Below, piece after piece: positions 5,064 through 23,119 of a stretch of 64,000 nt of DNA; position 1 is the stretch's first letter, and each line of letters opens with the position of its first letter. Location: contig CALVOX010000007.1 of NCBI GenBank assembly GCA_944350425.1, positions 5,617 to 69,616 on the forward strand, given 5' to 3'. Both the position numbers and the translations under genes were made by a program. Source of the DNA: an uncultured Bacilli bacterium. Its GTDB lineage: Bacteria; Bacillota_I; Bacilli_A; RFN20; CAG-826. The notes under the pieces were generated by a model. It saw only the letters and a list, made by a program, of their open reading frames with translations. It searched no databases and was not told the DNA's origin.

Positions 5064-7709
5064 TTATTTTAGTCCTGTATATGCAGATCCATCTCCATTG
5101 ACATCGCCTAAAACGATGCTAGCTCCGCTTAATTGAATATCAGATATTAGTTGCCTGGGATTTTCCTCAGCACCTAAAACTTCAGTTGTTAAATCAATGA
5201 ATGCATTAACAGATGTAATAGTTTTGCAACTTAAGTCAATTGCGCCACTAGTTGCACTATCTTTGATTACATAACCAGTTGCAGTTCCATCTTTTGCAAC
5301 AACCTTATGACCAATAAATGATAACAATTCATTATATTGTTTGCCATAAACAACTGATTCTTGAACTGTACAATCACTGATTAAATTTTGATATTTTTGA
5401 TTTAACCAATTCTTTGTTTCGCTTAAGAAGTTAGCAACATCAGCATCATATAATGAAGTTAAATTAGAATTAGTTGTAAATCTATTTACTGTACTAACAC
5501 TAGCTTCACCTGAAATGATGTCGTCGACCATATCATCGAATGCTTCTTTGAAAGTTGAAACGTTATTTTCTTCAGCATTGAAGAAATCTTCGTATCCTTC
5601 TTCAACAGCAGTAACAAATGCATGAACTTTCTTATCTAATGTTCCTAAAGCTTTACCTGCGGTTTGTAAGCCTTCTGCAGCAGAAGCTAAATCTTTCATA
5701 GTGGAAAGTTTGTTATTTGTCCAAGTTGTAGTAATATCAGCTACTGTGACATAATTTGAACTTTCTAATTCTTTTGGTAAATATTTTTCACCTAATTTTG
5801 TTTTGAAATCAGCAACGACATCTTTGTATCTAGCAGATTGTCTTGTTAAAGCTACTTGTAAATTTTGTTTAACGGCAGCAACGTTTGCACATGATTTTAA
5901 TTGTCCTTCATATGTAGAAACGATGGATGCGTATAAGGAAGGATTGCTATTTTTGACTTTTGAATATACGGAATATTTTCCTAAATCAGCACCAACTTCA
6001 ACATAACCGTCTTTATTTACTGTATTACCACTTGCTAAATAAGGGTTTGCATATTCTTTATCCCAAGTTAAAACGTTAGCAACAGATTTGAAACCTACTA
6101 ATTTTTGTCCTTGATAAACTGGAGCACCGAAAATTGAACCATAAAGTGGATCTTTTGCTGCGATTTCTTCGGCTTGAGCTTTTAATGTTTTTAATGCGTC
6201 AGCAACAGCGTTTTCAATACGTTCTGCTTTGAAAGCTTGAAGACCATTAGCGACAACTGCATCTTCTAAAGCGATTTCGATTCTACCGATTAAGCCAGAA
6301 GTTGCATCAACATAGGATTCAATTGTTTTTGAATTGTCCTTATCTTCATTAACGAAGTTAGAAACAGTACCTTCAACAACGCCTTTTAATGTGACTTTAG
6401 CATTTGGAGAAGATGATAATGATTTAGCATCATCAATTTCTTTTGTGTATGAAGCAACAATACCTTCGACTAATTTTTCTTTAACGCCATCATATGTATC
6501 ATTGATTGCATCAACGCCTTCTTTTTGTAAAGCAATTTCGTTTTTGTTATTTAATGGTAATTCTGTTGCAGCACTTACTTTTGATGCATATTCTTCATAA
6601 ACTGCTCCAGGTAAAGTTTCAACTGATACACCATATTGAGCAAGTAAAGTAACCATTGCATCATAAGCTTCTTCAGCATTCTTATTTGCTTCTGGATCTA
6701 ACCAATCTTCTTTTGTAATTAAAGTTTCATAAGCATCTTGTAAACCTTCTAATGCAGTTTGCTTTCTTAAAGTTAATGTTGTTAATGTACCTTCAGCGAA
6801 AATAACTTTTGTTCCATCTTTACAAGCATGTTCGTTAACAACTTTAGAAATTTCTTCTAATGTTGTAGCAGCTTCGATAGCTGCTTTTGCAGTTTCTGCA
6901 TCTTTAGTTGAATCTTCTTCAGTGTATTTTTCGTTTGTAACACCTTCGATTAAGTCATCAACCATTGATGGTGCTAAAGATTTAGCATTATCAACCAATA
7001 ATTTATATTCATTTTGTAAAACTGTAACACCTTCTTGAGCAGCTTTTTTAGCAGCTTCTAATTTTTCAGTAGCAGTAGCACTATCTTCTAAATCGTTTAC
7101 AGCGTCTTCTACGTCGCCTTTTAATTCTTCTAATTTATCAAATAATGAATCATCAGCAAATGTAGCCTCAGCATATAAAGCATTTACACCTTTATCATCT
7201 TTTGTTCCATCTGGTGCTCTGAAAATTAAATGATCTTTATCAGTGATTTCTTCTAAGGCATTTTCTAATAAAGATTGTCCATATGAAGTTGCATCATTCC
7301 ATACTGCACCTGTTACTTGGATTGTACCATCATAAACATCAGCATCAGAAATAGTATAAGTTGAAGATGCAGGATCAAAATCAGTTACTGGTTCACCATT
7401 GATTTCAAAATAGACGAGTAAATTTTTAGTTTCATCTTTTGGTGTGAAAGTGAATGTTACTTTATCGTGTTCGCCTTCTGTAACGAAGTAAACATCTTGT
7501 TTAACACTACCACCTTGAATGTTATTGTCATTAATAACGATGACATCTTTGTAGGTTTTACCATCAACACCATCTTTACCTGGTTGACCGTCTTCCCCTG
7601 GTTTGCCTGGTTCACCTGGTGTACCTGGAGTTGTTTGATTACATGAAGAAACAACTAAACCTAAGGATAAGCATAAAGCTCCTAAAGTTAATAAATTTTT
7701 CTTTTTCAT
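5064..7709 (-). CDS. large surface lipoprotein, paralog A (881 aa to the TAA; ~1051 aa if read through), collagen-like GXY tract after the lipobox
   Basis: Signal peptide MKKKNLLTLGALCLSLGLVVSSC (lipobox VSSC), then GTPGEPGKPGEDGQPGKDGVDGK. Homologous throughout to the 8700-11687 and 11815-14835 proteins. Confidence 0.8.
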   Translation of the reverse strand: MKKKNLLTLGALCLSLGLVVSSCNQTTPGTPGEPGKPGEDGQPGKDGVDGKTYKDVIVINDNNIQGGSVKQDVYFVTEGEHDKVTFTFTPKDETKNLLVYFEINGEPVTDFDPASSTYTISDADVYDGTIQVTGAVWNDATSYGQSLLENALEEITDKDHLIFRAPDGTKDDKGVNALYAEATFADDSLFDKLEELKGDVEDAVNDLEDSATATEKLEAAKKAAQEGVTVLQNEYKLLVDNAKSLAPSMVDDLIEGVTNEKYTEEDSTKDAETAKAAIEAATTLEEISKVVNEHACKDGTKVIFAEGTLTTLTLRKQTALEGLQDAYETLITKEDWLDPEANKNAEEAYDAMVTLLAQYGVSVETLPGAVYEEYASKVSAATELPLNNKNEIALQKEGVDAINDTYDGVKEKLVEGIVASYTKEIDDAKSLSSSPNAKVTLKGVVEGTVSNFVNEDKDNSKTIESYVDATSGLIGRIEIALEDAVVANGLQAFKAERIENAVADALKTLKAQAEEIAAKDPLYGSIFGAPVYQGQKLVGFKSVANVLTWDKEYANPYLASGNTVNKDGYVEVGADLGKYSVYSKVKNSNPSLYASIVSTYEGQLKSCANVAAVKQNLQVALTRQSARYKDVVADFKTKLGEKYLPKELESSNYVTVADITTTWTNNKLSTMKDLASAAEGLQTAGKALGTLDKKVHAFVTAVEEGYEDFFNAEENNVSTFKEAFDDMVDDIISGEASVSTVNRFTTNSNLTSLYDADVANFLSETKNWLNQKYQNLISDCTVQESVVYGKQYNELLSFIGHKVVAKDGTATGYVIKDSATSGAIDLSCKTITSVNAFIDLTTEVLGAEENPRQLISDIQLSGASIVLGDVNGDGSAYTGLK

Positions 7710-8654: not shown

Positions 8655-8848
8655 TTTAATAGAAAGTTTCTTTTTACATTAAGGAGATTAAATTAATTTA
8701 TGAAAAAGAAAAATTTATTAACTTTAGGAGCTTTATGCTTATCCTTAGGTTTAGTTGTTTCTTCATGTAACAACACTCCTGAAAAAGGCGATCCAGGTGA
8801 ACCAGGTGTAGATGGTCAACCAGGTAAAGATGGTGTCGATGGAAAAAC
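8655..8848 (+). repeat. ~194-bp 5' cassette of paralog B (UTR + signal peptide + GXY region), an inverted repeat of 14687-14880 with one mismatch
   Basis: Direct comparison. Identity runs through codon 51 (…GVDGKTY) and then breaks. Confidence 0.8.
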
Positions 8849-11687
8849 CTATGTCCCAATTATTGTTGTTAACGATTTAAACATCAAAGGTGGAACTATT
8901 GACCAAGACGTTTATTTTGCAGTACAAGGTGAACATGATAAAGTAACTTTCACATTCACAGCAGAAAGTGAAGGAAATGTAATTACTTATTTTGAAATTA
9001 ATGGTGAAGAAGTAAGCATTGCTCCAGATGCAACAAGTTATACTGTTGAAGATATTGATACATCTTATCCAAATGGTATTCAAGTTACTGGATTAACATA
9101 TCAAAGTCTTGATGCTTATGCTACAACCGGTGTAAAGGATTTCTTCAAAACAATTTCTGATGCTGATAATCAAGTTAAAAACGGCACTGAACCAGAAGGC
9201 TTAGTAAAGAGTGCATATTACGATGTTACTTTAGAACAACTTGTTACTGAAAAAGTCGAAGAAGTTAAAAAGGCTTATACTGATTTAGGCAAAGATGCTA
9301 CTGTAACCGAAAAAGTTGAAGCTATTAAAACAGCAACAAAAAAAGCTGAAGCTGAAATCCAAGAAGCATATGATAATTTAGTTACAGCTGCTAAAAACAC
9401 TGCTAAAACTGCATTAAAAACTTTAGATGAATCTTTAGTAAATAGCAATTATACTGAAGCAGATAGAAAAACTGTTTTAGATACAGCAAATGCTGAAGTC
9501 GATGCTGCAACTTCTTTACAAGGATTAGCTGCAGTCGTTAATACTGCTACAGCAAATCTTAAAGGCGCTAAATATAACAAATTATTCGCTCTTAAAGCTC
9601 AAGCTTTTGCTGAAATTAAATCAGCCGTTGAAGCAACTGGCTCATTTGAAAAAGATGTCGAAGCTAATAAAGATATCTTAGCAGATTATGGTATTACTGC
9701 TGATTCAAAACCAAGCGTAATCGCTAAAACATATTATGCTCAAGCTTCTGCTGCTACAGAAATTACTACTGTTGTAGTTGAAGAAAACGGAGTAAAAACT
9801 ACTTTAACATCAATTGGTAAAGAAGCTAAAGAAGCAATCGAAGCTTCAGTTGATAGCGTTAAAGGAACATTACTTGCTAATATTAAAGCTGCTTATATCG
9901 CTGAAGTCGATAATTCTAAAGTTTTAGCTGATGCTCAAAATGCTGCTTCTACAATTAAAGGTGTCATTGAAGCAACAGTTTCTAACTTTGAAGTTCAAGC
10001 AGAAGCTGACCCAACTCACTACACAATTTCAACATTTGTTTCTACAACTGGTACAGATGGTCACACAGCATTAAATTATGATTATACAGATGGCTTAATC
10101 TATAGACTTGAAAAAGCTGTTACAGAAGCTGTCGTTGCTAATGGTGTTCAAGCTTTCAATAGCGAAAGAATCGAAAATGCAAAACAAGCTGCTATTGCTT
10201 CATTCCAAGAAAAAGTTGATGAAATTAAAGCTGCTGATGCCGGATACGTTGAAGCAGTTTCTTATACAAAAGATTCATCTGGTAAGATTACACCAAAGAA
10301 AACATCTTGGGTTCTTGCGACTGTAGAAGAAACAAATGTTACTTTAGATACTCCTTTCTTTACTTCTACTGGAGAAGGTGAAGGAAAAACTTGGTCACTT
10401 GTTGCTCCAGAAACAGGATTAGTTACAGAAGAAGGTGGTAAACGCTTAACAGACTATAATGTTGACACTTGGTTAACAACATTAAAAGGAGTTACTTTAT
10501 CTTCTCCATTAGTTGTTAAACGATTTGAATCAACTCATATTGGTGATTTTGAAAAGATTTATGATAAAGCAATCGAGGTATTAACAAAATCATTAAGAAC
10601 AAAACTTGCTCTTGGTGATATTGAAGGAGAATATATTTCTTCAGATGATGTCTTAACCTCTTTCAATAATAGTGTTAAAGATAAGACTTTAAACGAAATT
10701 ATTAAGGTTGGACAATCCACATATGCTTCAAAAGAATTATTAACTAAATTAAATGATGCTGTTGAAGATGATATTGCTGCAAGGGTTGAAAAAGATAGTG
10801 CTTATGAAGCCTTATTTGGTAGCGAAGAAACATCCGTTTATAGAGAAGAATTAGGCAATTTAGTTGATTCATTAGTTTCTGGACAAGCAGGAGAAAGTGA
10901 AGTTAACGCATTCATTGAAGAAGATAATTTAAATTCTTTATACGCTCAAGATGTTGCAACATATCTTGACGATGCAAAAGATGTCTTAACACAAGTTTAT
11001 CAAAACTTAATTAGTGGAAAAGATGTCTCCGTTGATGAATACAGAACATTAACAAAACTCTATAACGATTATAATTCTTGGATTGGTCAAAAGATTAAAC
11101 AAAATTCAGACGGCGAATGGGTCCTTGATGAAAAAGGTTCAGTAGTCTATCCATGTAACACTATAACAACAGTTGATAAATGGTTAGCAGATGCTAGATT
11201 ATCTTTATCAAATGTAACAAGCGATGAGGAAGAAACAAATGAAATTACAGCTTTAAAACTTTATAGTTTAAAGACAGGAAATGCTGGTATAGATGCTATT
11301 CTAGGCATTAAATTTGATGGTAATTTAAATATCACAGGAGATGCAGAAAACCCATCTGATTACACTTCTCAAATAAGTGGCTTAGAAAATTTAAGTGATT
11401 TATTAAGTTTAGAAAAACTTACTCTAACAGGAAAAGTTGGTCTAGCAAAAAGCGTTAACAACGAAAATACTGCAGATTATCTTTGCCAAGTTACTAAAGT
11501 TGAAGTAAAGAAAGGTGAAGAAGTATCCAAAGATTTCACTTTAGAATTTGATGGAGAAAATGCAACATTTTCAGTTGATATGACTTCACTTCAAAGAGGT
11601 GTAAAATACACTGTTTCAATTACTGTTGCTTCCCCAGTAATTAATGAACAAACTTTTGCCTTCACAGTCACATTACCATCTGAATAA
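8700..11687 (+). CDS. large surface lipoprotein, paralog B (995 aa)
   Basis: RBS AAGGAGA. Lipoprotein signal with VSSC lipobox, GXY tract, and blocks shared with C (LANIKAAYIAEVDNSKVLAD, YPCNTITTVDKWLADAR). Confidence 0.85.
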   Translation: MKKKNLLTLGALCLSLGLVVSSCNNTPEKGDPGEPGVDGQPGKDGVDGKTYVPIIVVNDLNIKGGTIDQDVYFAVQGEHDKVTFTFTAESEGNVITYFEINGEEVSIAPDATSYTVEDIDTSYPNGIQVTGLTYQSLDAYATTGVKDFFKTISDADNQVKNGTEPEGLVKSAYYDVTLEQLVTEKVEEVKKAYTDLGKDATVTEKVEAIKTATKKAEAEIQEAYDNLVTAAKNTAKTALKTLDESLVNSNYTEADRKTVLDTANAEVDAATSLQGLAAVVNTATANLKGAKYNKLFALKAQAFAEIKSAVEATGSFEKDVEANKDILADYGITADSKPSVIAKTYYAQASAATEITTVVVEENGVKTTLTSIGKEAKEAIEASVDSVKGTLLANIKAAYIAEVDNSKVLADAQNAASTIKGVIEATVSNFEVQAEADPTHYTISTFVSTTGTDGHTALNYDYTDGLIYRLEKAVTEAVVANGVQAFNSERIENAKQAAIASFQEKVDEIKAADAGYVEAVSYTKDSSGKITPKKTSWVLATVEETNVTLDTPFFTSTGEGEGKTWSLVAPETGLVTEEGGKRLTDYNVDTWLTTLKGVTLSSPLVVKRFESTHIGDFEKIYDKAIEVLTKSLRTKLALGDIEGEYISSDDVLTSFNNSVKDKTLNEIIKVGQSTYASKELLTKLNDAVEDDIAARVEKDSAYEALFGSEETSVYREELGNLVDSLVSGQAGESEVNAFIEEDNLNSLYAQDVATYLDDAKDVLTQVYQNLISGKDVSVDEYRTLTKLYNDYNSWIGQKIKQNSDGEWVLDEKGSVVYPCNTITTVDKWLADARLSLSNVTSDEEETNEITALKLYSLKTGNAGIDAILGIKFDGNLNITGDAENPSDYTSQISGLENLSDLLSLEKLTLTGKVGLAKSVNNENTADYLCQVTKVEVKKGEEVSKDFTLEFDGENATFSVDMTSLQRGVKYTVSITVASPVINEQTFAFTVTLPSE

Positions 11688-11814: not shown

Positions 11815-14800
11815 TTATTCACCGGTTGTAACTAATTCGGAGAAATCTAATTGAATAGTTTTTACAACATTTGTTCCAGCTGCATCATAGATTTCAATTG
11901 TTAAGAAATCTTTATCATTATAATCAGCTTTAGATCCTTCAGCACCACTAACAGCAACTAAAGTTAAGAATGAACTTGAAGTTTGATTCTTTACTTCTGA
12001 AATTCCTGTTTTGTAGTCTGCAGCAGTTGCAGATCTATAAGTTACTACTTTATATCCAGGTGTTTTTTCCCATCTGAATAAGAAGACTTGTGTGTTTTCT
12101 TTATAAGCTTCACCCCAAGAAGTACCAGCTAAATCTTTACCTGCACTAACTGTTTTGCCTTCAACTTTAATATTTACAAGTGCATCTGTTGCTGATGTAA
12201 CTTCGAACTTTAATGATGGGTCATTTTTAAGAGTGATATCAACACCACCAATTGTTAATGTTCCTTCTTCAACGCTTTCAACAACGACATCTGGTGTAAC
12301 TTCATATGTAGGTGTAGTTCCAGATTTGCTTAATGAAGTTCTAGCATCATTTAACCATTTGTTAACTGCATGTAAAGTATCACATGGATAAACGACTTTA
12401 CCATTTTCTTCATCTAATACCCAAGCGTCACTTTCGTTTTTAACAATCTTTGCACCGATGAATGAAATATAGTCATTATAAACTTTTTGATAATTTCTAT
12501 ATTGTTCAACTGAAACTAAATCCTCACTAATTTTGTTTTGATAAATTTGTGCTAAAACATCTTTAGCATCAGTTAAGTAATCGTTAACATCGCTTGCATA
12601 TAAAGAATCTAAGTTAGCTTTAGTAACAAATGATGTAACATCACTTTCACCAGCTGCACCTGTTAATAATTTAGTAATCATATCATTTACAGCAGCTCTA
12701 TATGAAGAGTTAGAAGTTGGTTGTACTGGATCTCCGCCATCGAAGAATACCTTATAACCATTATCTTTAACGTCTCTTGCTTTAACATCGCTTGCAATTG
12801 CCTTATCAAGAGTAACTAATGAATCTGATGAGGATGTAGTTGATTGAGCGACTTCTAATATTTCATCAAAAGTTTTATTCTTAACAGCTTCATCAAACTT
12901 GCTGCTTACTTGTTCTGTGCTAACATATGTGCCCTTAGTTTTAGGTAATGATTCTGCTTTTAATTCAGAAACATAGAGTGCTTTAGCAGCATCATAGATT
13001 TTTTTGAAATCACCAGTATGAGCTGTTTCCCATTTCTTAACTTCTAATACAGGGTAAGTACCAGCAATTGTTGCTTCCTTTAATTCGCCTAACCAATCTT
13101 CTACGCTATATCCACTTAATACAGCGCCTGTACCTGTTGATGTAGAAGAAGCTTCAGTAATTTGAAGACCACTTACTTCTGGTAAACTATATGTCTTTTC
13201 TGTATCACCAGTAACAGCAAATAATGGGTTATCAATTTTTACTGCAGGGTTAGCTGTACTGTCTAATACATATTCTTTAACAGTTGGAGTAACAACACCA
13301 TCTGCTTCTTTATATGAGACTGCTTTAACGTAACCTGCATCTGCTTTAATTTCATTGACTTTTGCTTCAAATGCTTCAATAGCATCTTGTTTAGCGTTTT
13401 CTAATCTTTCATTACTGAAAGCAACGTTACCGGATTGAGTAATAACTTTGGCTAAAGCTACTTCTAAGTCATAAATTAATTGACCTGATTCTGTAGTACC
13501 GACATAATCAGATAAATTCTTTGTATCCTTATCTAATACGATGTAGTTTGAACAAACAGTTTCGATAACACCTTTAATAGTTGATGCAGCATTTGGTTGA
13601 TCTGCTAAAACTTTGGAATTATCAACTTCTGCGAGATAAGCAGCTTTGATATTAGCAAGTAATGTTTCTTTAACACCCTTTGTTGCTGCGTCAATAGCGG
13701 CTTTACATTCATTAACTAAAACGATTTCGCCATCTTCGTTAACTTCAATTGTAGTTGCTTCAGAAATTTGATCTGTATATGTTTTTGCAATAGCTGCTGG
13801 ATCTTGATCTAAAGAAACACCCCATTCTTCTAATGCAGCTTTTGTTCCTTCATCAGCAAATTCTTCAACATATCCTTTAATTGCAGGAGTATCGAGGTAA
13901 GCAGCGATTTGGTTTAAAGCTTGATTCTTTAAGTTATAAAGTTTGTTGTATTGAGCATCAGCAGTTAAAGCAGAACCATTAATAATTTTACTTAAACCTT
14001 CTAATGTTGTAGCTGCATCAATAGCTGCTTTTCCTTCAGCTAAGATTGCTTCTCTATCTTCGTCTAAGAATGTTTCTTGAGTAAGTGCAGCATCTAATGC
14101 TTCTAAGTGTCCTTCAGCTAAAACTTTTTTATCAGCTAAGACTTCGGCATAAGCTTCATCAAGAGCTTTGATAGCTTCGTTAGCAGCAGTTTCACCTGCA
14201 GTTAATCTTTCTTGAATAGTAGCATCTTCTTCTAATTCTGATAAAGCAGTTCCAATATCTAATTTACCTTGTTTGTAAACACCTTCTAATGTTTTATCAG
14301 CGTATGCTGATTGTTTATCTGCAGCAGGTGTTTCAGCTGTTTCACCAACATTTGTAACGATTTGGCTATCGTTAGCGACCATTGATTTCCAGTGTTCTTC
14401 TAAAAGTTTTGTTGAAACAGATAATGCATCACCGAAGACTGCACCAGTAACTTGAATTGAACCTTGATATACATCTGCATCAGTTAAAGTATAAGAGGTT
14501 GAACCTGGAACTAAATCTGTAACTACTTTGTTATTAATTTCTAAAGAAACGATGAATTCATCAGCGTTTTCAGCTGTGAAAGTAAATGTAACGCTATCGT
14601 GTTGGCCTTCTGTTACAAAGAAAACACTTTGTTCGACATCACCACCAACGAGGTTATCATCGTGAATAACAATAACATCTTTATAAGTTTTACCATCGAC
14701 ACCATCTTTACCTGGTTGACCATCTACACCTGGTTCACCTGGATCGCCTTTTTCAGGAGTGTTGTTACATGAAGAAACAACTAAACCTAAGGATAAGCAT

Positions 14801-14835
14801 AAAGCTCCTAAAGTTAATAAATTTTTCTTTTTCAT
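11815..14835 (-). CDS. large surface lipoprotein, paralog C (1006 aa)
   Basis: First 51 aa and the 5'UTR are identical to B. The rest is a mosaic homolog of both B and A. Confidence 0.85.
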   Translation of the reverse strand: MKKKNLLTLGALCLSLGLVVSSCNNTPEKGDPGEPGVDGQPGKDGVDGKTYKDVIVIHDDNLVGGDVEQSVFFVTEGQHDSVTFTFTAENADEFIVSLEINNKVVTDLVPGSTSYTLTDADVYQGSIQVTGAVFGDALSVSTKLLEEHWKSMVANDSQIVTNVGETAETPAADKQSAYADKTLEGVYKQGKLDIGTALSELEEDATIQERLTAGETAANEAIKALDEAYAEVLADKKVLAEGHLEALDAALTQETFLDEDREAILAEGKAAIDAATTLEGLSKIINGSALTADAQYNKLYNLKNQALNQIAAYLDTPAIKGYVEEFADEGTKAALEEWGVSLDQDPAAIAKTYTDQISEATTIEVNEDGEIVLVNECKAAIDAATKGVKETLLANIKAAYLAEVDNSKVLADQPNAASTIKGVIETVCSNYIVLDKDTKNLSDYVGTTESGQLIYDLEVALAKVITQSGNVAFSNERLENAKQDAIEAFEAKVNEIKADAGYVKAVSYKEADGVVTPTVKEYVLDSTANPAVKIDNPLFAVTGDTEKTYSLPEVSGLQITEASSTSTGTGAVLSGYSVEDWLGELKEATIAGTYPVLEVKKWETAHTGDFKKIYDAAKALYVSELKAESLPKTKGTYVSTEQVSSKFDEAVKNKTFDEILEVAQSTTSSSDSLVTLDKAIASDVKARDVKDNGYKVFFDGGDPVQPTSNSSYRAAVNDMITKLLTGAAGESDVTSFVTKANLDSLYASDVNDYLTDAKDVLAQIYQNKISEDLVSVEQYRNYQKVYNDYISFIGAKIVKNESDAWVLDEENGKVVYPCDTLHAVNKWLNDARTSLSKSGTTPTYEVTPDVVVESVEEGTLTIGGVDITLKNDPSLKFEVTSATDALVNIKVEGKTVSAGKDLAGTSWGEAYKENTQVFLFRWEKTPGYKVVTYRSATAADYKTGISEVKNQTSSSFLTLVAVSGAEGSKADYNDKDFLTIEIYDAAGTNVVKTIQLDFSELVTTGE

Positions 14836-15085: not shown

Positions 15086-16288
15086 TTAATCATTAGGAGT
15101 AATCTTTTTTAAAATCTTAGTAGCTTCTTCTAAAGCTTTATTGTCATCAATATAGTTATTTTCATTAATAAAATCACTTGCTTGACCAAGAAGTGTTTTT
15201 CTCGATTTAGAAGAAGCACCAGCATTATATAATTCAGTATTAATTGATTTTCTAGAGAATCCATGAATAGTGTTATAAGGAATAGAAGCTTTTAAACAAT
15301 ATCTTTTAAGTTTTTTTCTTATTCCACTATTGGTGTAATTAAATAAGATTGCTTCTTGATTATCAATTAAGTTATTTACTTCTAAATATTCTTTAAGTAA
15401 CTTAACATTGTTATTTGTATATATAATCGTTTTATAAGAAGAAGAGGTTTTAAGTCTAGAAGTTAGTCTTCCGTTAATTTGAAGTTTCTGTCTAGAAATA
15501 TTAATTAAAGCAATATTCTTTCTATTATCAAAAGAAATATCTTTAACTTTAATACCTAAGAATTCTCCAATTCTTAAAGAAGAAAAATAAAGTAATGTGA
15601 ACATTACTTTATCATTAAAGTTGTCAATAACTTTAATTAATTTCATTAATTCTTCTTTAGAAGTATATTTATTTCTTGATACTTTCTTTATTTCAACTTT
15701 CGATTTAAATTTAACTAAGATAAGTAATAAATCATCTTTATCTTCACTATTAATTAAACGTAACTTTCTCGAATATTCAATTAACTTTATTAATATTGAT
15801 AATATTTGGTTCTTTAAATGAGTAGAAACATTTAAAGAACCAAGATAGTTTCTAAATAAAGTTAATTCTTCTATTGAATATAATCTATTTATATCATTAT
15901 TAAAGTAATTATAGATATGATGATAAAACAATCGATCTAGATTATAGATATAAGATGTTGATAATTCATCTTTTCTAGAACTGATATAAAAAGAATATAG
16001 TTTCTCTAATGTAAATAAAGAGATATCTAATCTTTTAATATTCTTATTATTCTTATTAGAAGAATTAAGAGATAATAACGAAGATGAAAGTAGTTTATCA
16101 AGATCATTAATTCGTTTTACTAATACTTTAGTTAAAGTTTCTTCTAAGTTAGAAACATAAGTTTTATCTTCAAAACTTAAGTTATCATTATCACTAATAA
16201 ATAAATGATAGTAGTTACCATTATTATCGAGTTTTATTCTCTTATCGATATAATAATGATTTGTTTTTTTATTTAAAATAACACTCAT
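15086..16288 (-). CDS. tyrosine site-specific recombinase (phage-integrase family)
   Basis: Box I-like SLRIGEFLGIKVKDI (Arg), box II-like HGFSRKS…LLGQAS, and a C-terminal Tyr in NNYIDDNKA. RBS AGGAGG. 400 aa. Confidence 0.8.
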   Translation of the reverse strand: MSVILNKKTNHYYIDKRIKLDNNGNYYHLFISDNDNLSFEDKTYVSNLEETLTKVLVKRINDLDKLLSSSLLSLNSSNKNNKNIKRLDISLFTLEKLYSFYISSRKDELSTSYIYNLDRLFYHHIYNYFNNDINRLYSIEELTLFRNYLGSLNVSTHLKNQILSILIKLIEYSRKLRLINSEDKDDLLLILVKFKSKVEIKKVSRNKYTSKEELMKLIKVIDNFNDKVMFTLLYFSSLRIGEFLGIKVKDISFDNRKNIALINISRQKLQINGRLTSRLKTSSSYKTIIYTNNNVKLLKEYLEVNNLIDNQEAILFNYTNSGIRKKLKRYCLKASIPYNTIHGFSRKSINTELYNAGASSKSRKTLLGQASDFINENNYIDDNKALEEATKILKKITPND

Positions 16289-16446
16289 TTGAATTCCTCC
16301 TATTAATAAAAGCGTTAATTTCTTAGTTTAAGCTCTGATTAAACTTTTACTAATATTAAGGATAATTGTTGCTATTAATAAAATAAGATTACTCAAACGA
16401 GTAACCTTATAGTTTTTTATTTATCTAGTATTAATAAAATCTATAT

Positions 16447-17007
16447 TTATTTATCGTAATAATAGATGGAATTTTTAACTTCTTCAGCATAAGTTTTACC
16501 TTTAAGATATTCAACAATCTTAAAAGCAAAATCAATGGTTGCACTAGCACTAATTCCTGAGATGATATTATCATCTTGAACGACATAAGTATCAATATAT
16601 GTACCACCAAAATCTTCATTCATCGATTTAAAACAAGTATATTTTTTATTTTTTAATAATCCTAAATGACCTAAGATTGTTGGACCTGCACAAATAGCAG
16701 CAATTAACTTATGTTTAGAATAAAAATCTAAAATAATATCTTTAAATTCTTTACTAGCTTCGAGTTCTTTATATTCAGGACCTCCTGCAATAAATAAAGT
16801 ATTGTAGTTATCTAAAGAGAAGTTATGATCTTCATTTATAACTTTATAGTCATTAAGTTTTAAACCATATCTACCTTCAATATTACTTCTTTTTAAAGAA
16901 TAAATATCGACATCAATATTACTTCTTCTTAAAATTGCAAAAGTTCCAAATGCTTCTATTTCTTCAAAACCATCTGTTAAAATTAAAAGTACTTTATTGC
17001 TATTCAT
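16447..17007 (-). CDS. DJ-1/PfpI/ThiJ family protein
   Basis: LLILTDGFEEIE…FIAGGPEY…AAICAGPTILGHLGLL. 186 aa. Confidence 0.75.
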   Translation of the reverse strand: MNSNKVLLILTDGFEEIEAFGTFAILRRSNIDVDIYSLKRSNIEGRYGLKLNDYKVINEDHNFSLDNYNTLFIAGGPEYKELEASKEFKDIILDFYSKHKLIAAICAGPTILGHLGLLKNKKYTCFKSMNEDFGGTYIDTYVVQDDNIISGISASATIDFAFKIVEYLKGKTYAEEVKNSIYYYDK

Positions 17008-17589
17008 TTTAATATCTCCTAGCTTTTTTTTAATTATATCTTAAATAATAAAAGGGAGATATTAAAATGAATAAATATATTTATAATATTACTGTGTATT
17101 TAAGAATAATTATTGTCAATTAAAAATGTTTTGTCCAATTATAATGGGGTGTATAATTACAAAATTACTATTCTGTGTTAATAAACTATGTTTATTAACA
17201 CTAGAAGAATTTGCTACTTAAATTCACTTTTTGTAACCAAAGAGCTTCAATATAATAATTGTCGAAATATTTTTAAATTTATATTGAAAAAATTTAATTT
17301 TCAGTTTATATTAATTTCACATTTTGAAGTTAACTATTCTTCAAAATAATTGTATTAGTTTATTAGCTAATATCTTCACTTATTGAAGTTTTAAATTAGT
17401 TATTATATAGAAATAAATAATTAAATTGTTTGGAATTAGTAATAAATATTTTTCTAAAGTAAAGTGCACTTATTTCAAAATTAATATTTATTGTATTTTC
17501 CTATAGATTTAGGTTATTTGCTATCAATATCTTAATAAAAAGTATTGAATTTTATATTCATTTTAGAGATAATTACAAGGCTTTTGCTA

Positions 17590-17640
17590 GAGTGTCTTAC
17601 CCAATGACTAACCACTCTTAAAAGAAAACAGGGGGATATA
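17590..17640 (+). promoter_or_regulatory. stem-loop plus A-rich tail immediately 5' of queT; candidate preQ1-type riboswitch or leader, not confirmed
   Basis: AGAGTG-18 nt loop-CACTCT, then TAAAAGAAAACAGGGGG, ending 6 nt before the ATG. The loop is longer than in the canonical preQ1-I aptamer. Confidence 0.2.
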
Positions 17641-17645
17641 TTTCA

Positions 17646-18209
17646 ATGAAAAACTTTTTTAAAGATTTTTTTAGTGTAAAGATGATTGCTTTAAATGCAA
17701 TTATCGCCGCAATTTATGCAGTGCTTACAATTGCATCAGGACCACTTTCCTACAATTATTTCCAATTTAGAGTAAGTGAATTTTTAAATCTTTTAGTATT
17801 TTTTAATCCTAGTTATACTTTAGGTTTAACAGTTGGATGTTTAATTGCTAATTTGGCTTCATTTGCCGGAATATATGATATTATCTTCGGAACACTTGCA
17901 ACACTTGTATCTTGCTTACTTATGATACCTTTTGCAAAACTTACCAAAAACTTATTCTTTGCAACATTTATTCCAAGTTTGATTAATGCAATTACTGTTC
18001 CTTTTATTATATATTTAGCTTCTTTAGGAACTGGTGATGAATTTGCTTTAAGTTCAATAATGTATTTTACGATGTTTGGTTGGACTTTCTTAGGGGAGTT
18101 CATTGCAATAACGATTTTAGGCTATGTAATTTTTATGCCTTTAATGAAAAAAGTTCACTCTTTTCCAAAGCTTATTAATGCGAGAACTAACCTAGATTTT
18201 AAGTGGTAG
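17646..18209 (+). CDS. queT: queuosine-precursor transporter QueT (ECF-type S component)
   Basis: 187-aa polytopic membrane protein directly upstream of tgt-queA-queH. RBS GGGGGA. Confidence 0.6.
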   Translation: MKNFFKDFFSVKMIALNAIIAAIYAVLTIASGPLSYNYFQFRVSEFLNLLVFFNPSYTLGLTVGCLIANLASFAGIYDIIFGTLATLVSCLLMIPFAKLTKNLFFATFIPSLINAITVPFIIYLASLGTGDEFALSSIMYFTMFGWTFLGEFIAITILGYVIFMPLMKKVHSFPKLINARTNLDFKW

Positions 18210-18243: not shown

Positions 18244-19413
<1,170 letters not shown>

Positions 19414-19415
19414 TT

Positions 19416-20441
19416 ATGGATATCGAATTATTTGATTATGAACTTGATCCTAGTTTAATTGCACAAACTCCACTTAAAGATCGAGATAAATGCCGTTTAT
19501 TAGTTGTTGATAAAACAAATAAAACATATAAAGATGAACCTCACTTTTTTGAAATATTAAAATATTTAAAAAAAGGTGATGTTTTAGTTAGAAATAATAC
19601 TAAAGTTATTCCAGCAAGAATCTATGGAATAAAAGAAGAAACAAATGCTCATATTGAATGTCTATTACTCAAAAACTTGGGCAATGATGTTTATGAATGT
19701 TTAATTGGAAATGCAAAAGTTATTAAACTTGGTACTAGAATTAAATTTAGCGATAAGCTTTATGGAGAATGTCTCGAAGTAAGAGATGAAGGAATAAGAA
19801 TTATTAAATTTATTTACCAAGGAATATTCTTAGAAATTCTTGAAGAAATTGGTAATATGCCTTTACCTCCATATATTAAAGAAAAAATTAAAGATAAAAG
19901 TGATTATCAAACTATCTATGCTTTAAAAGAAGGAAGTAGTGCGGCTCCTACAGCAGGATTCCATTTTAGTGAAGAACTTTTTGCTAAAATTAAAGAAATG
20001 GGAATTGACGTGATTGATGTTACTTTAACTATTGGTTTAGGTACGTTTAGACCAGTTAAAGAAAAAGATGTTTTAAAACATCATATGCATGAAGAAGAAT
20101 ATGAAATTAGTGAAGAAGCTGCCTCTTTCTTAAACAAAGCTAAAAAAGAGGGAAGAAGAATTATCGGAATTGGTACGACATCTCTTAGAACTTTAGAAGC
20201 TAATATTTCTAAATACGGTGAATTTAAAGCAACCAAAGAATCAACTGATATTTTTATATATCCTGGATATACTTTTAAAGCAATCGATGCTTTAATTACT
20301 AATTTTCATTTACCTAAATCAACTTTAATTATGTTAGTAAGTGCTTTAATGGGAAGAGAATTTACCTTAGAAGTTTATAAACACGCAGTTGATGAAAGAT
20401 ATCGTTTCTTTTCTTTTGGAGACGCAATGTTTATTTATTAA
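19416..20441 (+). CDS. queA: S-adenosylmethionine:tRNA ribosyltransferase-isomerase
   Basis: MDIELFDYELDPSLIAQTP…GFHFSEELF…TNFHLPKSTL. The start overlaps the tgt TGA stop. Confidence 0.9.
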   Translation: MDIELFDYELDPSLIAQTPLKDRDKCRLLVVDKTNKTYKDEPHFFEILKYLKKGDVLVRNNTKVIPARIYGIKEETNAHIECLLLKNLGNDVYECLIGNAKVIKLGTRIKFSDKLYGECLEVRDEGIRIIKFIYQGIFLEILEEIGNMPLPPYIKEKIKDKSDYQTIYALKEGSSAAPTAGFHFSEELFAKIKEMGIDVIDVTLTIGLGTFRPVKEKDVLKHHMHEEEYEISEEAASFLNKAKKEGRRIIGIGTTSLRTLEANISKYGEFKATKESTDIFIYPGYTFKAIDALITNFHLPKSTLIMLVSALMGREFTLEVYKHAVDERYRFFSFGDAMFIY

Positions 20442-20469: not shown

Positions 20470-22098
20470 ATGGATGAAGATAAAAGTATAAAAGAAAATA
20501 AAAATTACTATAACGAATTCGTTAAATTATATAAAGAAATAAGAAAAAAAGAGAAAGATAAACCTAAACTTCTCCTTCATGTTTGTTGTGCGGCTTGTAG
20601 CGCTTATCCTTTAGTTTTTCTTATAGATTTATTCGATATTACTATTCTTTATACTAATTCTAATATCTATCCTAAAGAAGAATTTGATAAAAGACTTTAT
20701 TATCTTAAAAAATATGTTTCGGATATAAATACCAAATTTAAAACTCATATCGAGATTGTTGTTGATAACTATCATTATGATACATTTAAAAAAGATCTTG
20801 AACCTTATAAAAATGAAAAAGAAATGGGTACAAGGTGTAAAATCTGTATCGCTAAACGTTTTAATCAATTATTTGAATATGCTAAAAACAATAACTTTAA
20901 ATATGTAACAAGTGTAATGTCTATATCAAGAAATAAAGATGTTAACTATCTTAATGAACTTGGTTTATCTTTAGAAAATAAATATAAAGACTATGATATT
21001 AAATATATTGTAAGTGATTTTAAGAAAAATAATGGGCAAGATCTTGGGATTAAAATTGCAAAAGAATTTAATATTTACCGTCAAGATTATTGCGGATGTG
21101 AATATTCTTTATCAAAAGAACATAAACCAAGAGAAGTTAGTGTTATCGTACCTATCCATGGTGTTTATGAATATTTAGATAAATGTTTAGATTCTTTAGT
21201 CCATCAAAATATAGAAGTAAGTTATGAAGTCGTTTGCGTACTTGATTCACCTCTTGAACAAGATAGAGAAATTACATATAAGTATCAAACTTTATTCCCT
21301 GATTTAGTTACTGTACATGAAGTTAATTTTAAAGATTTAAGTGAAGTTAGAAACTATGGCTTGCTTCATTCTTATTCTAGATATGTCGCATTTGTTGATG
21401 GCGATGACTACGTCTCGCCAACTTATCTAAAAGATTTTTATGAAGATATTGTAAAAAAGAATTCTGATATTGTGGTTTGCAATTACTATATGGCTTATCC
21501 GAATAAAATAAAAAAATGTTTTCCTTCAAATCCGCTTATCTTTAAACCTCGAAATAGTTTAGAAGCTTGTAGAAGTTTATGCCGTGACATCCATTTAAGA
21601 GGATATGTTTGGAATAAGTTTTTCAAAAGAGAAATTATTGAAAATAAGTCAATCTTCTTTATGTCATTTAGGTATTGCATTGAGGATTATTTCTTTGTTT
21701 TTTCTTATCTTCTTAATATCAATTCTATTTCTTTTATAAATAAATATAACTATTATTACGTTCAAAGGCCAAGTAGCGTCGTTCATAAAGATGATGGTTC
21801 TATTATAAAAAAACTTATTAATTCTCAATTTCTAGTAAAATATTACGCTTTTAAAGAGAATAGACCAGAAACTACTAAAATTTCTTATTTCTTTAAAGAA
21901 ATAGCCTTAATTTATTCAATTATCATTCAAAGAAAAAACTTACAAATTCCTTTAAAAGAATTTATTTCAAGTACAAGAAAACAAATCAAAAAGATTAAAA
22001 AAAATGAATATCTTTACGAAGGAGAAGACTGGGAAAAAGTAGTCGCTTCATATATTGAAAAACAAAACAAAGATTTTTATATCGACAAAGGAAAATAA
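20470..22098 (+). CDS. queH: fusion protein: N-terminal epoxyqueuosine reductase QueH (DUF208), a family-2 glycosyltransferase domain, and a ~90-aa tail
   Basis: QueH Cys motifs LLHVCCAACS, RCKICIAKRF, YCGCEYS, then the GT2 start SVIVPIHGV…VDGDDY. The 542-aa frame has no stop and no internal Met/RBS at the junction. Confidence 0.7.
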   Translation: MDEDKSIKENKNYYNEFVKLYKEIRKKEKDKPKLLLHVCCAACSAYPLVFLIDLFDITILYTNSNIYPKEEFDKRLYYLKKYVSDINTKFKTHIEIVVDNYHYDTFKKDLEPYKNEKEMGTRCKICIAKRFNQLFEYAKNNNFKYVTSVMSISRNKDVNYLNELGLSLENKYKDYDIKYIVSDFKKNNGQDLGIKIAKEFNIYRQDYCGCEYSLSKEHKPREVSVIVPIHGVYEYLDKCLDSLVHQNIEVSYEVVCVLDSPLEQDREITYKYQTLFPDLVTVHEVNFKDLSEVRNYGLLHSYSRYVAFVDGDDYVSPTYLKDFYEDIVKKNSDIVVCNYYMAYPNKIKKCFPSNPLIFKPRNSLEACRSLCRDIHLRGYVWNKFFKREIIENKSIFFMSFRYCIEDYFFVFSYLLNINSISFINKYNYYYVQRPSSVVHKDDGSIIKKLINSQFLVKYYAFKENRPETTKISYFFKEIALIYSIIIQRKNLQIPLKEFISSTRKQIKKIKKNEYLYEGEDWEKVVASYIEKQNKDFYIDKGK

Positions 22099-22135: not shown

Positions 22136-23119
22136 ATGATTAGAGTTTTTAAAGAGACAAACAAAAAGTTAGATGAGTTTACTATTGAAAACAAAGATTT
22201 TTTAGCTTTGCATGATCCAAATTTAATGCCTAAAGGAAGTTGGATACATGTAAGTGATCCCGATGAAGCAATATTGAGTGAAATTTCTAAATTAACCTCA
22301 ATTCCTTTAGATTTTTTGATGTCTTCTTTAGATGAAGAAGAAAGTGCTCGTATTGATAAAGATGATGACGCATCCTTAATAGTTTTAGATACTCCTTTTT
22401 TAATTGATGAAGAGAAGAAGCTTTATACAACCGCACCATTTATTATTTCATATAATCAAAGTTACTATGTAACTATTGCACGACATAAATTTGAACTTTT
22501 AGATGAAGTCTTTAAACGTGTTAAATTAATCGAACCACATAAACATGTTAGATTTACTTTAAATATTATTTATCGTTTAGCTACTTTATTTATTAATTAT
22601 TTAAAAAAATTAAATTTAAAAACTGAAGAAATTGAAAGAACTTTAAGAACTTCAACTAAAAATAAAGAAATCTTAGAGCTTATGGATATTTCTAAATGTT
22701 TAATTTATTTTTCAACAGCTTTAAATGCTGATAAGGCGGTATTAATTAAACTTTTAAAGTTAAAAGAGTTTAATGAATTTGAAGACGATTATGATTTAAT
22801 GGAAGATACTAAAGTAGAATTAGATCAAGCAAGTGAAATGTGTTCAATTTCTAGAAGCGTTCTTTCTTCAATGACTGATGCTTTTGGCTCTGTTATTAAT
22901 AACAATCTTAATAGTGTTATGAAAACTTTAAGTGTAATTACTATTGTTTTATCAGTTCCAACTCTTATTTCTTCTTTATATGGAATGAATGTTGAAGATA
23001 TTCCTTTAGCTCATCATGAGCTAGCTTTCTGGATTGTTTTTGCTATTTCTTTAGCCTTTGCAATCATTGCTTCAATCATTCTTATATTCTTAAGTTCCGG
23101 AAGAGGAAGAAAGAAATAA
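22136..23119 (+). CDS. corA: CorA-family Mg2+/Co2+ transporter
   Basis: YGMN motif and two C-terminal TM helices. The ATG at 22136 is chosen over the overlapping TTG at 22055. Confidence 0.8.
   Translation: MIRVFKETNKKLDEFTIENKDFLALHDPNLMPKGSWIHVSDPDEAILSEISKLTSIPLDFLMSSLDEEESARIDKDDDASLIVLDTPFLIDEEKKLYTTAPFIISYNQSYYVTIARHKFELLDEVFKRVKLIEPHKHVRFTLNIIYRLATLFINYLKKLNLKTEEIERTLRTSTKNKEILELMDISKCLIYFSTALNADKAVLIKLLKLKEFNEFEDDYDLMEDTKVELDQASEMCSISRSVLSSMTDAFGSVINNNLNSVMKTLSVITIVLSVPTLISSLYGMNVEDIPLAHHELAFWIVFAISLAFAIIASIILIFLSSGRGRKK

Follow-up and report, generated by a model that had tools for sequence, protein, structure and literature searches.

We found that a single open reading frame (ORF) in the 64-kb stretch of DNA analyzed here (the window) encodes an epoxyqueuosine reductase (QueH) joined to a family 2 glycosyltransferase (GT2). 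We think it likely that this protein arose by fusion of neighboring genes, that its glycosyltransferase (GT) half is of a type that acts on the cell envelope, and that this half has decayed elsewhere in the family. A single event, within a small clade of AT-rich gut Bacilli that have not been cultured, would have joined queH to the adjacent gene. That gene, a translationally coupled GT2 overlapping queH, would have belonged to a small islet of glycosyltransferase genes lying between those for queuosine and the S10 ribosomal operon. The QueH half would complete synthesis of queuosine (Q) at tRNA position 34 after uptake of preQ1 (QueT), base exchange (Tgt), and the QueA step. The C-terminal half would be a GalT1/TarP-like GT-A enzyme, probably still active in the lineage of the window, and its acceptor, rather than tRNA, would be a glycoconjugate of the cell envelope that GT4-type partners help to make. 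Most other lineages that inherited the fusion would have lost the glycan partners from the locus, and their GT half, devoid of its catalytic motifs, would persist as a folded pseudoenzyme appendage of QueH.

The fused reading frame and the queuosine operon

The whole ORF (20470..22098, + strand; supported by translation, Pfam, and homologue clusters) runs for 542 aa without interruption and holds a complete QueH domain and a complete GT2 domain of the GT-A type, with a joint of ~9 residues. The motifs HVCCAACS, RCKICIAKR, and YCGCEYS are at residues 37-44, 122-130, and 207-213, and SVIVPIHGV and VDGDDY are at residues 224-232 and 309-314. The original prediction had described one 542-aa QueH-GT2 frame with no stop, Met, or ribosome-binding site (RBS) at the joint. 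The motifs, the Pfam matches, and the unbroken ORF bear out the first part. So does the junction the second: the linker KEHKPREV (21115..21138, + strand) is free of stop and start codons, there are zero stops and zero in-frame ATG, GTG, or TTG codons from C210 to the first GT strand, and the GT part has no RBS of its own. AlphaFold confidence (pLDDT) falls to 72-83 at the junction. Across the fusion family, the linker is low-complexity and varies in sequence and in length, from about 9 to 40 residues.

We recovered ~25 full-length fusions, with identities as low as 40%. The homologue cluster P0001 is 99% identical to the window protein and is also 542 aa; P0002 is 90% identical and was read from contigs of separate samples. 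Because the same frame is present in independent assemblies, the fusion ORF is not an artefact. As part of the explanation that we favor, QueH-GT2 is likely a genuine two-domain protein that has been vertically inherited.

The QueH domain (residues 34-215; 20569..21114, + strand) was identified by Pfam, alignment to Thermotoga maritima QueH, Foldseek, and cysteine motifs. The Pfam match (PF02677, DUF208) spans residues 34-215 and positions 1-174 of the 175 in the profile (E 1.6e-48; 165.6 bits vs a gathering cut-off of 23.5). Residues 4-175 of T. maritima QueH align with this half (E 1e-18), and Foldseek matched it to the T. maritima structure 7lc5 with TMt 0.88 and an rmsd of 2.4 A. pLDDT is >90 across the domain. 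The seven motif cysteines (CCxxC, CxxC, and CGC; Fe-S and iron site) align with those of the T. maritima enzyme, and none of them (C39, C40, C43, C123, C126, C208, and C210) varies among 22 family members. In the window's lineage, dN/dS (omega) of the QueH half is 0.06, at dS of 0.6-0.9. Thus the fusion resembles QueH (T. maritima 7lc5 and 9deu) in its full-length profile match, all conserved cysteines, its fold, and its place directly after queA in a queT-tgt-queA operon. In contrast to described QueH enzymes, which are single-domain proteins of ~180-250 aa, the fusion continues into a GT-A domain of 327 residues at its C-terminus and has, ahead of the QueH domain, an N-terminal helix (residues 12-27) that is specific to the clade and conserved across it. 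Based on family membership and operon context, we infer that the N-terminal half would be an ordinary epoxyqueuosine reductase.

Three queuosine genes on the + strand precede the fusion: queT (17646..18209; preQ1 transporter S-component; Pfam QueT, 8e-38), tgt (18247..19413; tRNA-guanine34 transglycosylase; Pfam TGT, 1.6e-159; TIGR00430, 532 bits), and queA (19410..20441; Pfam Queuosine_synth, 5.6e-128; NF001140, 449 bits). The likely start of queA is the ATG at 19416; the orthologue in the related locus L085 has 341 aa. The fusion had been placed inside this operon. The upstream part of that description stands, but the fusion is the last queuosine gene and is followed by corA (22136..23119, + strand; Pfam CorA, 1.4e-52) and then, in the window, by the S10 ribosomal-protein operon. 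Only the window's subclade, which includes L084 and L085 (where the corA product has 327 aa), has corA after the fusion. A scan of the operon for promoters and terminators gave fewer promoter-like sites than in shuffled sequences and no intergenic terminators.

We also noticed a conserved leader RNA directly upstream of queT that is undetected by Rfam. This structured element (17585..17651, + strand), identified by conservation in 10 related loci and covariation, has a layout like that of preQ1-I type II riboswitches. The type II signature comprises P1, an 'AC' before the P1 3' strand, an A-rich L3, and a 3' Shine-Dalgarno (SD) sequence, upstream of queT (PMC11625349). The leader has a 6-bp P1 stem, 'AC' preceding the P1 3' strand, an A-rich tail, the SD AGGGGG, and an ATG. 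Compared with type II, P1 covaries and the AC, A-rich tail, and SD are present, but the loop is 16-45 nt vs ~8. The leader is nearly invariant in the 10 loci; P1 is paired in 100% of them, with 2 compensatory positions, and our model of the element (R1) recovers a distant copy in locus L016. The P2 pseudoknot (CCC/GGG) never varies and is hence uninformative. Thermodynamic folding was uninformative, with z-scores near 0, which is what one would expect of a short pseudoknot rich in A and T. The Rfam model for preQ1-I (RF00522) had no match in the 81-nt stretch searched, either at the gathering threshold or at E<=10. This unannotated leader may help improve riboswitch models.

The glycosyltransferase half and the loss of its motifs in other fusions

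The GT-A (GT2) catalytic domain (residues 224-443; 21139..21798, + strand) was assigned to the GT2 class (GT-A fold, inverting, metal-dependent) from PF00535, a PDB match, fold matches, and a motif table. PF00535 (Glycos_transf_2) matches residues 224-349 (E 4.2e-19; 69.5 bits vs a gathering cut-off of 23.3). All of the motifs are intact in the window: SVIVPIHGV (beta1), LDSP, RNYG (RNxG), DGDD (DxD), and IED (ED). The DxD motif, for metal and nucleotide-sugar binding, is D310-G-D-D313 (21397..21408, + strand). A C-terminal helical region of the GT2 subfamily follows (residues 444-533; 21799..22068, + strand; AlphaFold helices and Foldseek) and aligns with the C-terminal parts of TarP/TarS-type enzymes. 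It contains YxYEGEDWEK (22009..22038, + strand), which was found by aligning the fusions. This motif (YxYEGEDWEK or YxYEGEEWEK) is nearly invariant and is the best-conserved element of the GT half across fusions, with E517, W521, and E522 invariant. Unfused orthologues have weaker versions (NSPWEGV, NAPWEST, and NKPWSSL).

The nearest known enzymes act on the cell surface. The best match of the GT half in a PDB sequence search was GalT1 (5hea; 1.7e-21), and Foldseek matched the same structure (E 5.6e-17, TMt 0.77), as well as TarP, TarS, and RmlT. These four enzymes (5hea; TarS, 5tz8; TarP, 6h1j; RmlT, 8bz5), which are the best sequence and fold matches, glycosylate cell-surface polymers and resemble the GT half in their DxD, their ED base motif, and the helices that extend their C-terminus. 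They differ in that identity is only ~20-25% and that the GT half is attached to an enzyme of tRNA modification. The related uncultured orders RF39, RFN20, and ML615J-28 are predicted to lack the standard synthesis of wall and lipoteichoic acid (PMC10868615). In the window's lineage, dN/dS of the GT half is 0.07 at dS of 0.6-0.9. Since all motifs are kept under this strong purifying selection, the GT half of this lineage is probably an active nucleotide-sugar transferase. Its acceptor would probably be a component of the cell envelope.

Most other fusions have lost these motifs. The DxD and other nucleotide-sugar motifs are gone from 18 of the 26 family sequences examined, with the fold kept. 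The DxD is intact in the window, P0002-P0006, P0025, and the unfused orthologues, and degenerate in P0007-P0024 and L001. In 5 full-length fusions the GT half is invisible to Pfam. Mean pairwise identity is 0.71 for QueH vs 0.36 for the GT core, and 69 of 204 columns are invariant in QueH compared with 2 of 229 in the GT core. Nevertheless, the motif-dead GT half is still predicted to adopt a GT-A fold (pLDDT 88), and its dN/dS is 0.19-0.22 (0.22 in one pair), with 0.13 in the C-terminal part. Because the DxD is lost in most of the family and the fold is kept, sugar transfer is not what the fusion conserves.

Distribution and probable origin of the fusion

The fusion is restricted to a single small clade, made up of AT-rich gut Bacilli that have not been cultured. 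Whole-profile matches were found in only 4 clusters (50% identity) among 1.84e9 representatives, and all of the fused genes share one site, queT-tgt-queA-[fusion]-(corA)-S10. The fused proteins group as a single clade whether the tree is built on QueH (bootstrap 79) or on GT2 (bootstrap 96), and in the GT2 tree the window's lineage is the first to branch off within that clade. The trees are distance-based (neighbor joining with bootstrap) and built from short domains, and their deep nodes are weak.

Close relatives carry the two genes separately or have only one of them. In two sister genomes (L004 and L006), queH and the orthologous GT2 are in different frames and overlap by 14-17 nt, and the GT2 has its own RBS and ATG. 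Three others (L002, L003, and L005) have the same operon with QueH alone. Elsewhere the GT2 is near other glycosyltransferases. The order is queH, GT2, GT4 in L006; GT2_3, a GT2-GT4 fusion (P0030), queH, GT4 in L172; and GT2, queH, Glf (UDP-galactopyranose mutase) in L007. The GT4 of L006 shares its N-terminus with the GT4 part of P0030. The stand-alone P0031 is between GT4/GT1 genes, and both it and P0027 are located away from queuosine genes. Together with the GT half of the fusion, these unfused or otherwise fused GT2s (L004, L006, L007, P0030, P0027, and P0031) form a subfamily with 100% bootstrap and a common, unusual signature (SVIVPIHGV...FVDGDDYV...IED and a C-terminal W-E helix). Most of them occupy the same locus as the fusion. 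The GT2 is joined to QueH in the window's clade only; elsewhere it stands as its own gene or forms a fusion with a different glycosyltransferase.

Outside this clade we found little sign of an association. Among the matches listed, none of 80 generic GT2 loci had queH nearby, and 75 of 80 queH loci had no GT2. The pattern used for the GT2 side in metagenomes, [YF][ILV]xF[VL]D[GS]DD[YF], is too generic to serve as more than a baseline; the matches listed were ordinary GT2s with 25-34% identity and included no orthologues.

The original prediction took the fusion as a sign of functional coupling and proposed to look at how widely the architecture is spread. It is confined to one clade and one locus, not spread across lineages, and this single lineage-restricted event, with sisters that carry two overlapping genes, argues against coupling. 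So does the range of other partners. We found QueH fused to at least nine unrelated types, among them GNAT, RNase HII, VanZ, Amidase_3, a CCA-adding enzyme, a methyltransferase, an MraY-like protein, and BPL/LplA. Because these partners are functionally heterogeneous, a single QueH fusion weighs less as evidence of pathway coupling. The alternative that had been named along with coupling, a chance fusion to a glycosyltransferase of the cell-surface type, is better supported. Two overlapping neighbor genes were most likely joined by accident.

Some observations do not fit this simple history. queH and GT2 are adjacent in at least three arrangements (queH|GT2, GT2|queH, and fused), which is more than a single insertion predicts. 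In addition, otherwise reduced genomes have retained the motif-dead domain at full length and under purifying selection (omega of ~0.2), and this, along with its near-invariant C-terminal motif, suggests that the appendage does something for the protein. Also counting against the explanation that we favor and its putative acceptor, no glycan partner genes were found in the window or beside the fusions: genes for partner GT4, Glf, GT2_3, and sugar-nucleotide enzymes were absent from the 64 kb, and GT4, Glf, and sugar-nucleotide partners were absent from beside every fused gene examined.

Other roles for the glycosyltransferase half

It is possible that the GT half, even in the window, is mainly a non-catalytic accessory of QueH that affects oligomerization, stability, or substrate handling. 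We consider this unlikely, though it has several points in its favor. An accessory role would let the GT half persist after its catalytic residues were lost, and the constrained, full-length, motif-dead domains and the C-terminal motif that is stronger in fusions than in unfused orthologues are consistent with this. GalT1 and TarP/TarS are oligomers. AlphaFold gave a pTM of 0.76 for both two-domain models, which hints that the halves pack in a defined way. In contrast, close relatives manage with QueH alone, and the linker is variable and low-complexity. The window's lineage keeps every catalytic motif at omega of 0.07, which a pure scaffold need not do. Furthermore, omega of ~0.2 can arise without any new function if purifying selection keeps the attached domain from misfolding.

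The original prediction favored a different role, a glycosylated queuosine or a new tRNA-modification step. The GT half would add a sugar to queuosine or epoxyqueuosine at tRNA position 34, coupled to the last step of queuosine synthesis. We regard this as very improbable. It is true that the fusion is stable, that both halves are strongly constrained and the catalytic motifs intact in the window's lineage, that queH and GT2 are adjacent in several arrangements within the clade, and that both halves are cytoplasmic enzymes. QTGAL (B3GNTL1), the galactosyl-queuosine enzyme of eukaryotes, is also classed in GT2. However, the DxD and the uracil- and ribose-binding motifs are lost in most fusions (the DxD in 18 of 26 sequences). 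The nearest orthologues not joined to QueH have GT4 enzymes as fusion partners or neighbors and Glf as a neighbor, which points to multi-step glycan assembly; a single sugar on queuosine needs none of these. In relatives (L002, L003, and L005), the QueH of this operon stands alone, and the association of this GT with queuosine genes is limited to one clade and one locus, against the baseline of 0 of 80 GT2 loci near queH and 75 of 80 queH loci without a GT2. Charge and pI of fused and unfused GT domains revealed no shift to a more basic surface, and thus no hint of an acquired RNA-binding surface.

QTGAL and QTMAN, the eukaryotic Q-tRNA glycosyltransferases, are glycosyltransferases like the GT half and act once queuosine is formed (PMC12518689). 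Unlike the fusion, they come from animals and have no enzyme of queuosine synthesis as a fusion partner, and the bacterial fusion family does not conserve catalysis. We saw no specific sequence relationship to them among the 8 PDB sequence hits of the GT half at E<=0.01, none of which was a QTGAL or QTMAN chain. Within the literature searched, sugar-modified queuosine is reported only in animals (PMC10690763, PMC12518689), and our searches found no report of QueH/DUF208 fusions or of bacterial glycosyl-queuosine. Because the window's early-branching lineage keeps its GT motifs intact, under a constraint as tight as that on QueH, there is a slim chance that its fused enzyme reduces epoxyqueuosine and then transfers a sugar onto the cyclopentenediol of Q34. 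If so, this would be the first glycosylated queuosine in bacteria, and the motif-dead relatives would have given up the extra step later.

Least probable of all, a sequencing or assembly frameshift could have merged two truly separate genes, as two-gene versions in relatives and an ORF-breaking indel in the relative L084 might suggest, but the identical uninterrupted frame in many independent assemblies and samples (99% to 40% identity), the lack of a start codon or RBS for the GT part, and the position of the L084 indel within QueH, away from a junction that is in frame, make this exceedingly improbable.

If the GT half did act on Q-tRNA, glycosyl-queuosine would extend from animals to bacteria, and a compact enzyme would be at hand to produce it. 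The evidence favors another history, in which neighbor-gene fusion was followed by pseudoenzyme decay. Since the fusion is likely accidental and confined to one small group, it does little to support the existence of sugar-modified queuosine in bacteria. With at least nine unrelated partner types, QueH fusions are a poor guide to pathway links. Separate genes, a probably active fusion, and fusions with a dead domain make up a natural series that provides material on how useless domains persist, and the GT2-GT4-Glf islet is a candidate pathway for surface glycans in a gut lineage that is uncultured and wall-reduced.

The fused reading frame and its origin

The fusion of the epoxyqueuosine reductase QueH to a family-2 glycosyltransferase (GT2) is a real gene in which both domains are complete. 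The 542-aa open reading frame runs without interruption on the plus strand of the window (20470-22098). Its QueH domain (residues 34-215; Pfam E 1.6e-48) covers positions 1-174 of the 175 in the profile, and is followed by a Glycos_transf_2 domain (residues 224-349; Pfam E 4.2e-19). All testable membership features were present, those of QueH in the N-terminal half and those of GT2/GT-A in the C-terminal half (the GT half). Against NCBIfam, the GT half gave sub-threshold matches only, all to generic polysaccharide-type GT2 models. Neither a stop nor an in-frame ATG, GTG or TTG occurs at the junction (…YCGCEYSLSKEHKPREVSVIVPIHGV…). The genes queT, tgt and queA are directly upstream, corA is downstream, followed by the S10 ribosomal-protein operon, and Rfam and promoter/terminator scans of the window found no element separating the four queuosine (Q) genes. 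The single frame, the uninterrupted joint and the linkage to Q salvage genes were all as originally noted. We infer that the N-terminal QueH reduces epoxyqueuosine.

An assembly artefact is excluded as the source of the fusion. Two database clusters, P0001 (99% identical) and P0002 (90% identical), both hold 542-aa proteins, P0002 was read from contigs of separate samples, and about 25 full-length fusions were found (530-606 aa, identity down to 40%). In one JGI contig (L084), a small deletion within the QueH part (about 575-600) splits the gene call into a QueH of 174 aa and a 'GT2' of 271 aa (P0121). The junction of this fusion gene is in frame, and the deletion is either a sequencing error or the mark of a recent pseudogene.

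The proposed survey of domain architecture and phyletic distribution placed the fusion in one small clade and at one locus. All fusions with fetched context (L001, L084, L085, L087, L089, L091, L174, L175 and L176) share one site, with queT-tgt-queA before the fusion, and corA or another small insert and then the S10 operon after it. The genomes are AT-rich MAGs (25-31% G+C) of uncultured gut Bacilli; a close relative lacking the GT is labelled Candidatus Onthovivens. When 1.84 billion cluster representatives (50% identity) were searched exhaustively by HMM, only four clusters (P0011, P0019, P0022 and P0023) matched the whole QueH+GT2 profile, and the remaining matches were to QueH alone or GT2 alone. 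Among the best 80 queH loci of species-representative genomes, this GT2 was beside queH in L001, L004, L006 and L007 only. Conversely, among the 80 generic GT2 loci listed, none had a queH nearby. The subclade of P0003 and P0005 carries, inserted after queA and ahead of the fusion, one more ECF-transporter S-component gene (about 200 aa, PF12822; L089 7349-7951, L174 1083-1676), which could encode a second transporter for 7-deazapurines or one for another vitamin.

The fusion had a single origin at this fixed locus. The related loci L004 and L006 encode QueH and the orthologous GT2 as separate genes, in different frames with a 14-17 nt overlap and with a dedicated Shine-Dalgarno sequence and ATG for the GT2. 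From such a pair, one frameshift ahead of the queH stop would yield exactly the architecture in the window, where the junction retains the GT2 N-terminus nearly from its start codon (PREVSVIVPIHGV, compared to MEEIKVSIIVPIHGV in L004). Three other loci (L002, L003 and L005) have queH alone with synteny unchanged. In the QueH-domain tree, the fused proteins group together as a clade (bootstrap 79), with the split and stand-alone forms as its sister (joint bootstrap 99). The GT2-domain tree also unites the fused domains in a single clade (bootstrap 96), nested in a subfamily with 100% support that includes unfused forms, and the window protein and P0002 are the earliest branch of the fused clade. 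The L004 contig (CAVGUA010000114.1) is titled Parabacteroides goldsteinii. The contig is likely mis-binned, because it has 31% G+C and Bacilli-type queT-tgt-queA-queH and S10 synteny.

The queT leader and genes upstream

A roughly 60-nt element immediately upstream of queT (17585-17651, plus strand) is nearly invariant across ten related loci. Copies are found in L001 (5052-5138), L002 (1100-1167), L004 (4040-4103), L006 (5176-5240), L016 (5233-5287), L087 (4772-4865), L089 (4321-4404) and L172 (3786-3852), and the element reads GCUAGAGUGUCUU-optional hairpin-CCCAUGACUAACCACUCUUAAAAUAAAACAGGGGG-N-AUG. The 6-bp P1 stem pairs in 100% of cells, with two compensatory positions, compared to 32-64% in slid controls. 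Differing hairpins are inserted at one loop position in four loci, and the copy in L016, recovered with a covariance model, is more divergent and has a further compensatory stem variant. Rfam searches with these elements gave no hit, even when short stretches were used with a cutoff of E<=10. When compared to the class I type II preQ1 riboswitch signature (PMC11625349), the 'AC' before the P1 3' strand, the A-rich tail and the Shine-Dalgarno sequence that follows all fit, but the loop is much larger. The leader probably represents a divergent variant of the preQ1-I class, missed by current models.

The intergenic region before the leader (17008-17584; about 580 nt, very AT-rich) has no ORF of at least 60 aa, no Rfam match and weak promoter-like sites only. 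A phage-integrase-family gene and a DJ-1/PfpI gene (15086-17007, minus strand) precede it. Members of both families, on opposite strands, also precede queT in L175 (424-2646), a distant relative whose fusion (P0023) is about 42% identical, and the integrase gene seems to be conserved and resident, not the mark of a fresh mobile-element border. Three very large ORFs, of 881 aa (5064-7709, minus strand), 995 aa (8700-11687, plus strand) and 1006 aa (11815-14835, minus strand), have no Pfam match above threshold and probably encode lineage-specific surface proteins. At the start of the 1006-aa protein, a lipoprotein-like signal (…LVVSSCNN) precedes a short collagen-like G-x-y run.

Catalytic decay and constraint in the GT half

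Most descendants of the fusion have degenerate catalytic motifs. The GT-A motifs SVIVPIHGV, LDSP, RNxG, VDGDDY and IED are retained in the window protein, P0002-P0006, P0025 and all unfused orthologues. In P0007-P0024 and L001 the DxD is replaced (e.g., by ESTSY, SSSDF, NSNDI, GLNGY or SSSVT), and most of these also lack the remaining nucleotide-sugar motifs. Precomputed Pfam annotation missed the GT2 domain in five full-length fusions. Members with intact motifs sit at the base of the GT2 tree and are paraphyletic, so the active state is the ancestral one and was lost at least twice. Across the fusion family, mean pairwise identity is 0.71 in the QueH region (69 of 204 columns invariant), 0.36 in the GT core (2/229) and 0.43 in the C-terminal region (6/85).

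The dead domain is under relaxed purifying selection: for the pair P0011/P0008, dN/dS is 0.22 in the GT core, 0.13 in the C-terminal part and 0.14 in QueH. It is also predicted to fold as GT-A still; the P0011 model (pLDDT 88.3) matched GalT1 and TarP at TMt of about 0.67-0.70. In the window/P0002 pair, constraint on the GT half matches that on QueH (dN/dS 0.07 vs 0.06, at dS 0.6-0.9), and the GT half of the window is probably still an active sugar-nucleotide transferase.

The best-conserved element of the GT half is the C-terminal motif YxYEGEEWEK, a sharpened form of a W-E helix already found in the unfused GT2 subfamily. The low-complexity linker is anywhere from about 9 to about 40 residues long. 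AlphaFold models of the window protein and P0011 both gave a pTM of 0.76, which is compatible with the two halves packing in a defined way. The pI of fused GT domains (8.6-9.5) shows no shift to more basic values relative to unfused ones (8.9-9.3).

The likely role of the GT half

The acceptor of the window's GT half is probably a cell-envelope glycoconjugate, not tRNA. Among solved proteins, sequence and fold alike place the GT half nearest to GalT1, which acts in adhesin glycosylation, and to TarS, TarP and RmlT, which glycosylate wall teichoic acid. These matches, together with the two-gene, GT2-GT4 and Glf-neighbour arrangements in sister genomes, favor what had been offered as the alternative, a chance fusion to a cell-surface-type glycosyltransferase. 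It is possible, though rather unlikely, that the GT half is a non-catalytic accessory of QueH, which would explain retention of the dead domain and is more plausible than glycosylation of Q. The latter, the reading originally preferred on the grounds that fusion marks functional coupling, is very improbable in this lineage: it has in its favor the adjacency of the GT and queH and nothing further, and a dedicated Q-tRNA glycosyltransferase is expected to show conserved catalysis wherever the architecture occurs and a link to Q independent of local synteny, whereas this family shows neither, its association with Q being tied to one locus. Sugar-modified Q has been placed in animals (PMC10690763, PMC12518689), and our literature search found no report of a QueH-GT fusion or of bacterial glycosyl-Q.

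QueH is a promiscuous fusion partner. Among proteins P0026-P0120, from outside the window, it is also joined to GNAT acetyltransferases, RNase HII (many cases, some labelled Gracilibacteria), VanZ, Amidase_3, a CCA-adding-type (PolyA_pol) nucleotidyltransferase, a methyltransferase, an MraY-like PF00953 transferase and a BPL/LplA biotin/lipoate ligase domain. Several of these partners are cell-envelope enzymes.

The sister of the fused GT domains (bootstrap 86) comprises the GT2 that L007 encodes as a free protein and the one that forms part of P0030, a 699-aa GT2-GT4 fusion. L007 (1-2676) carries GT2, queH and a UDP-galactopyranose mutase (Pfam GLF, 3.9e-74). L172 (6615-11851) carries queT-tgt-queA, GT2_3 (opposite strand), P0030, queH, GT4 and the S10 operon. 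In L006 (8629-10766), queH and GT2 are followed by a GT4 whose start (MKRIFWFLQQLEYLGGTETATISIANLL) is nearly identical to that of the GT4 part of P0030, and thus the GT2-GT4 linkage occurs twice, as adjacency and as fusion. Of the stand-alone members, P0031 (same GT2 subfamily) is flanked by GT4/GT1 genes and P0027 has no Q gene nearby. No partner glycosyltransferase was found in the 64-kb window. Overall, the GT2 belongs to an islet of several glycan or glycolipid enzymes, interleaved by chance with queH in this clade, and it has fused with whichever gene adjoined it. The islet between the Q genes and S10 of sister genomes, with GT2_3, the GT2-GT4 fusion, GT4 and UDP-galactopyranose mutase, is a candidate pathway for a surface glycan or glycolipid, possibly galactofuranose-containing, in an uncultured gut lineage.
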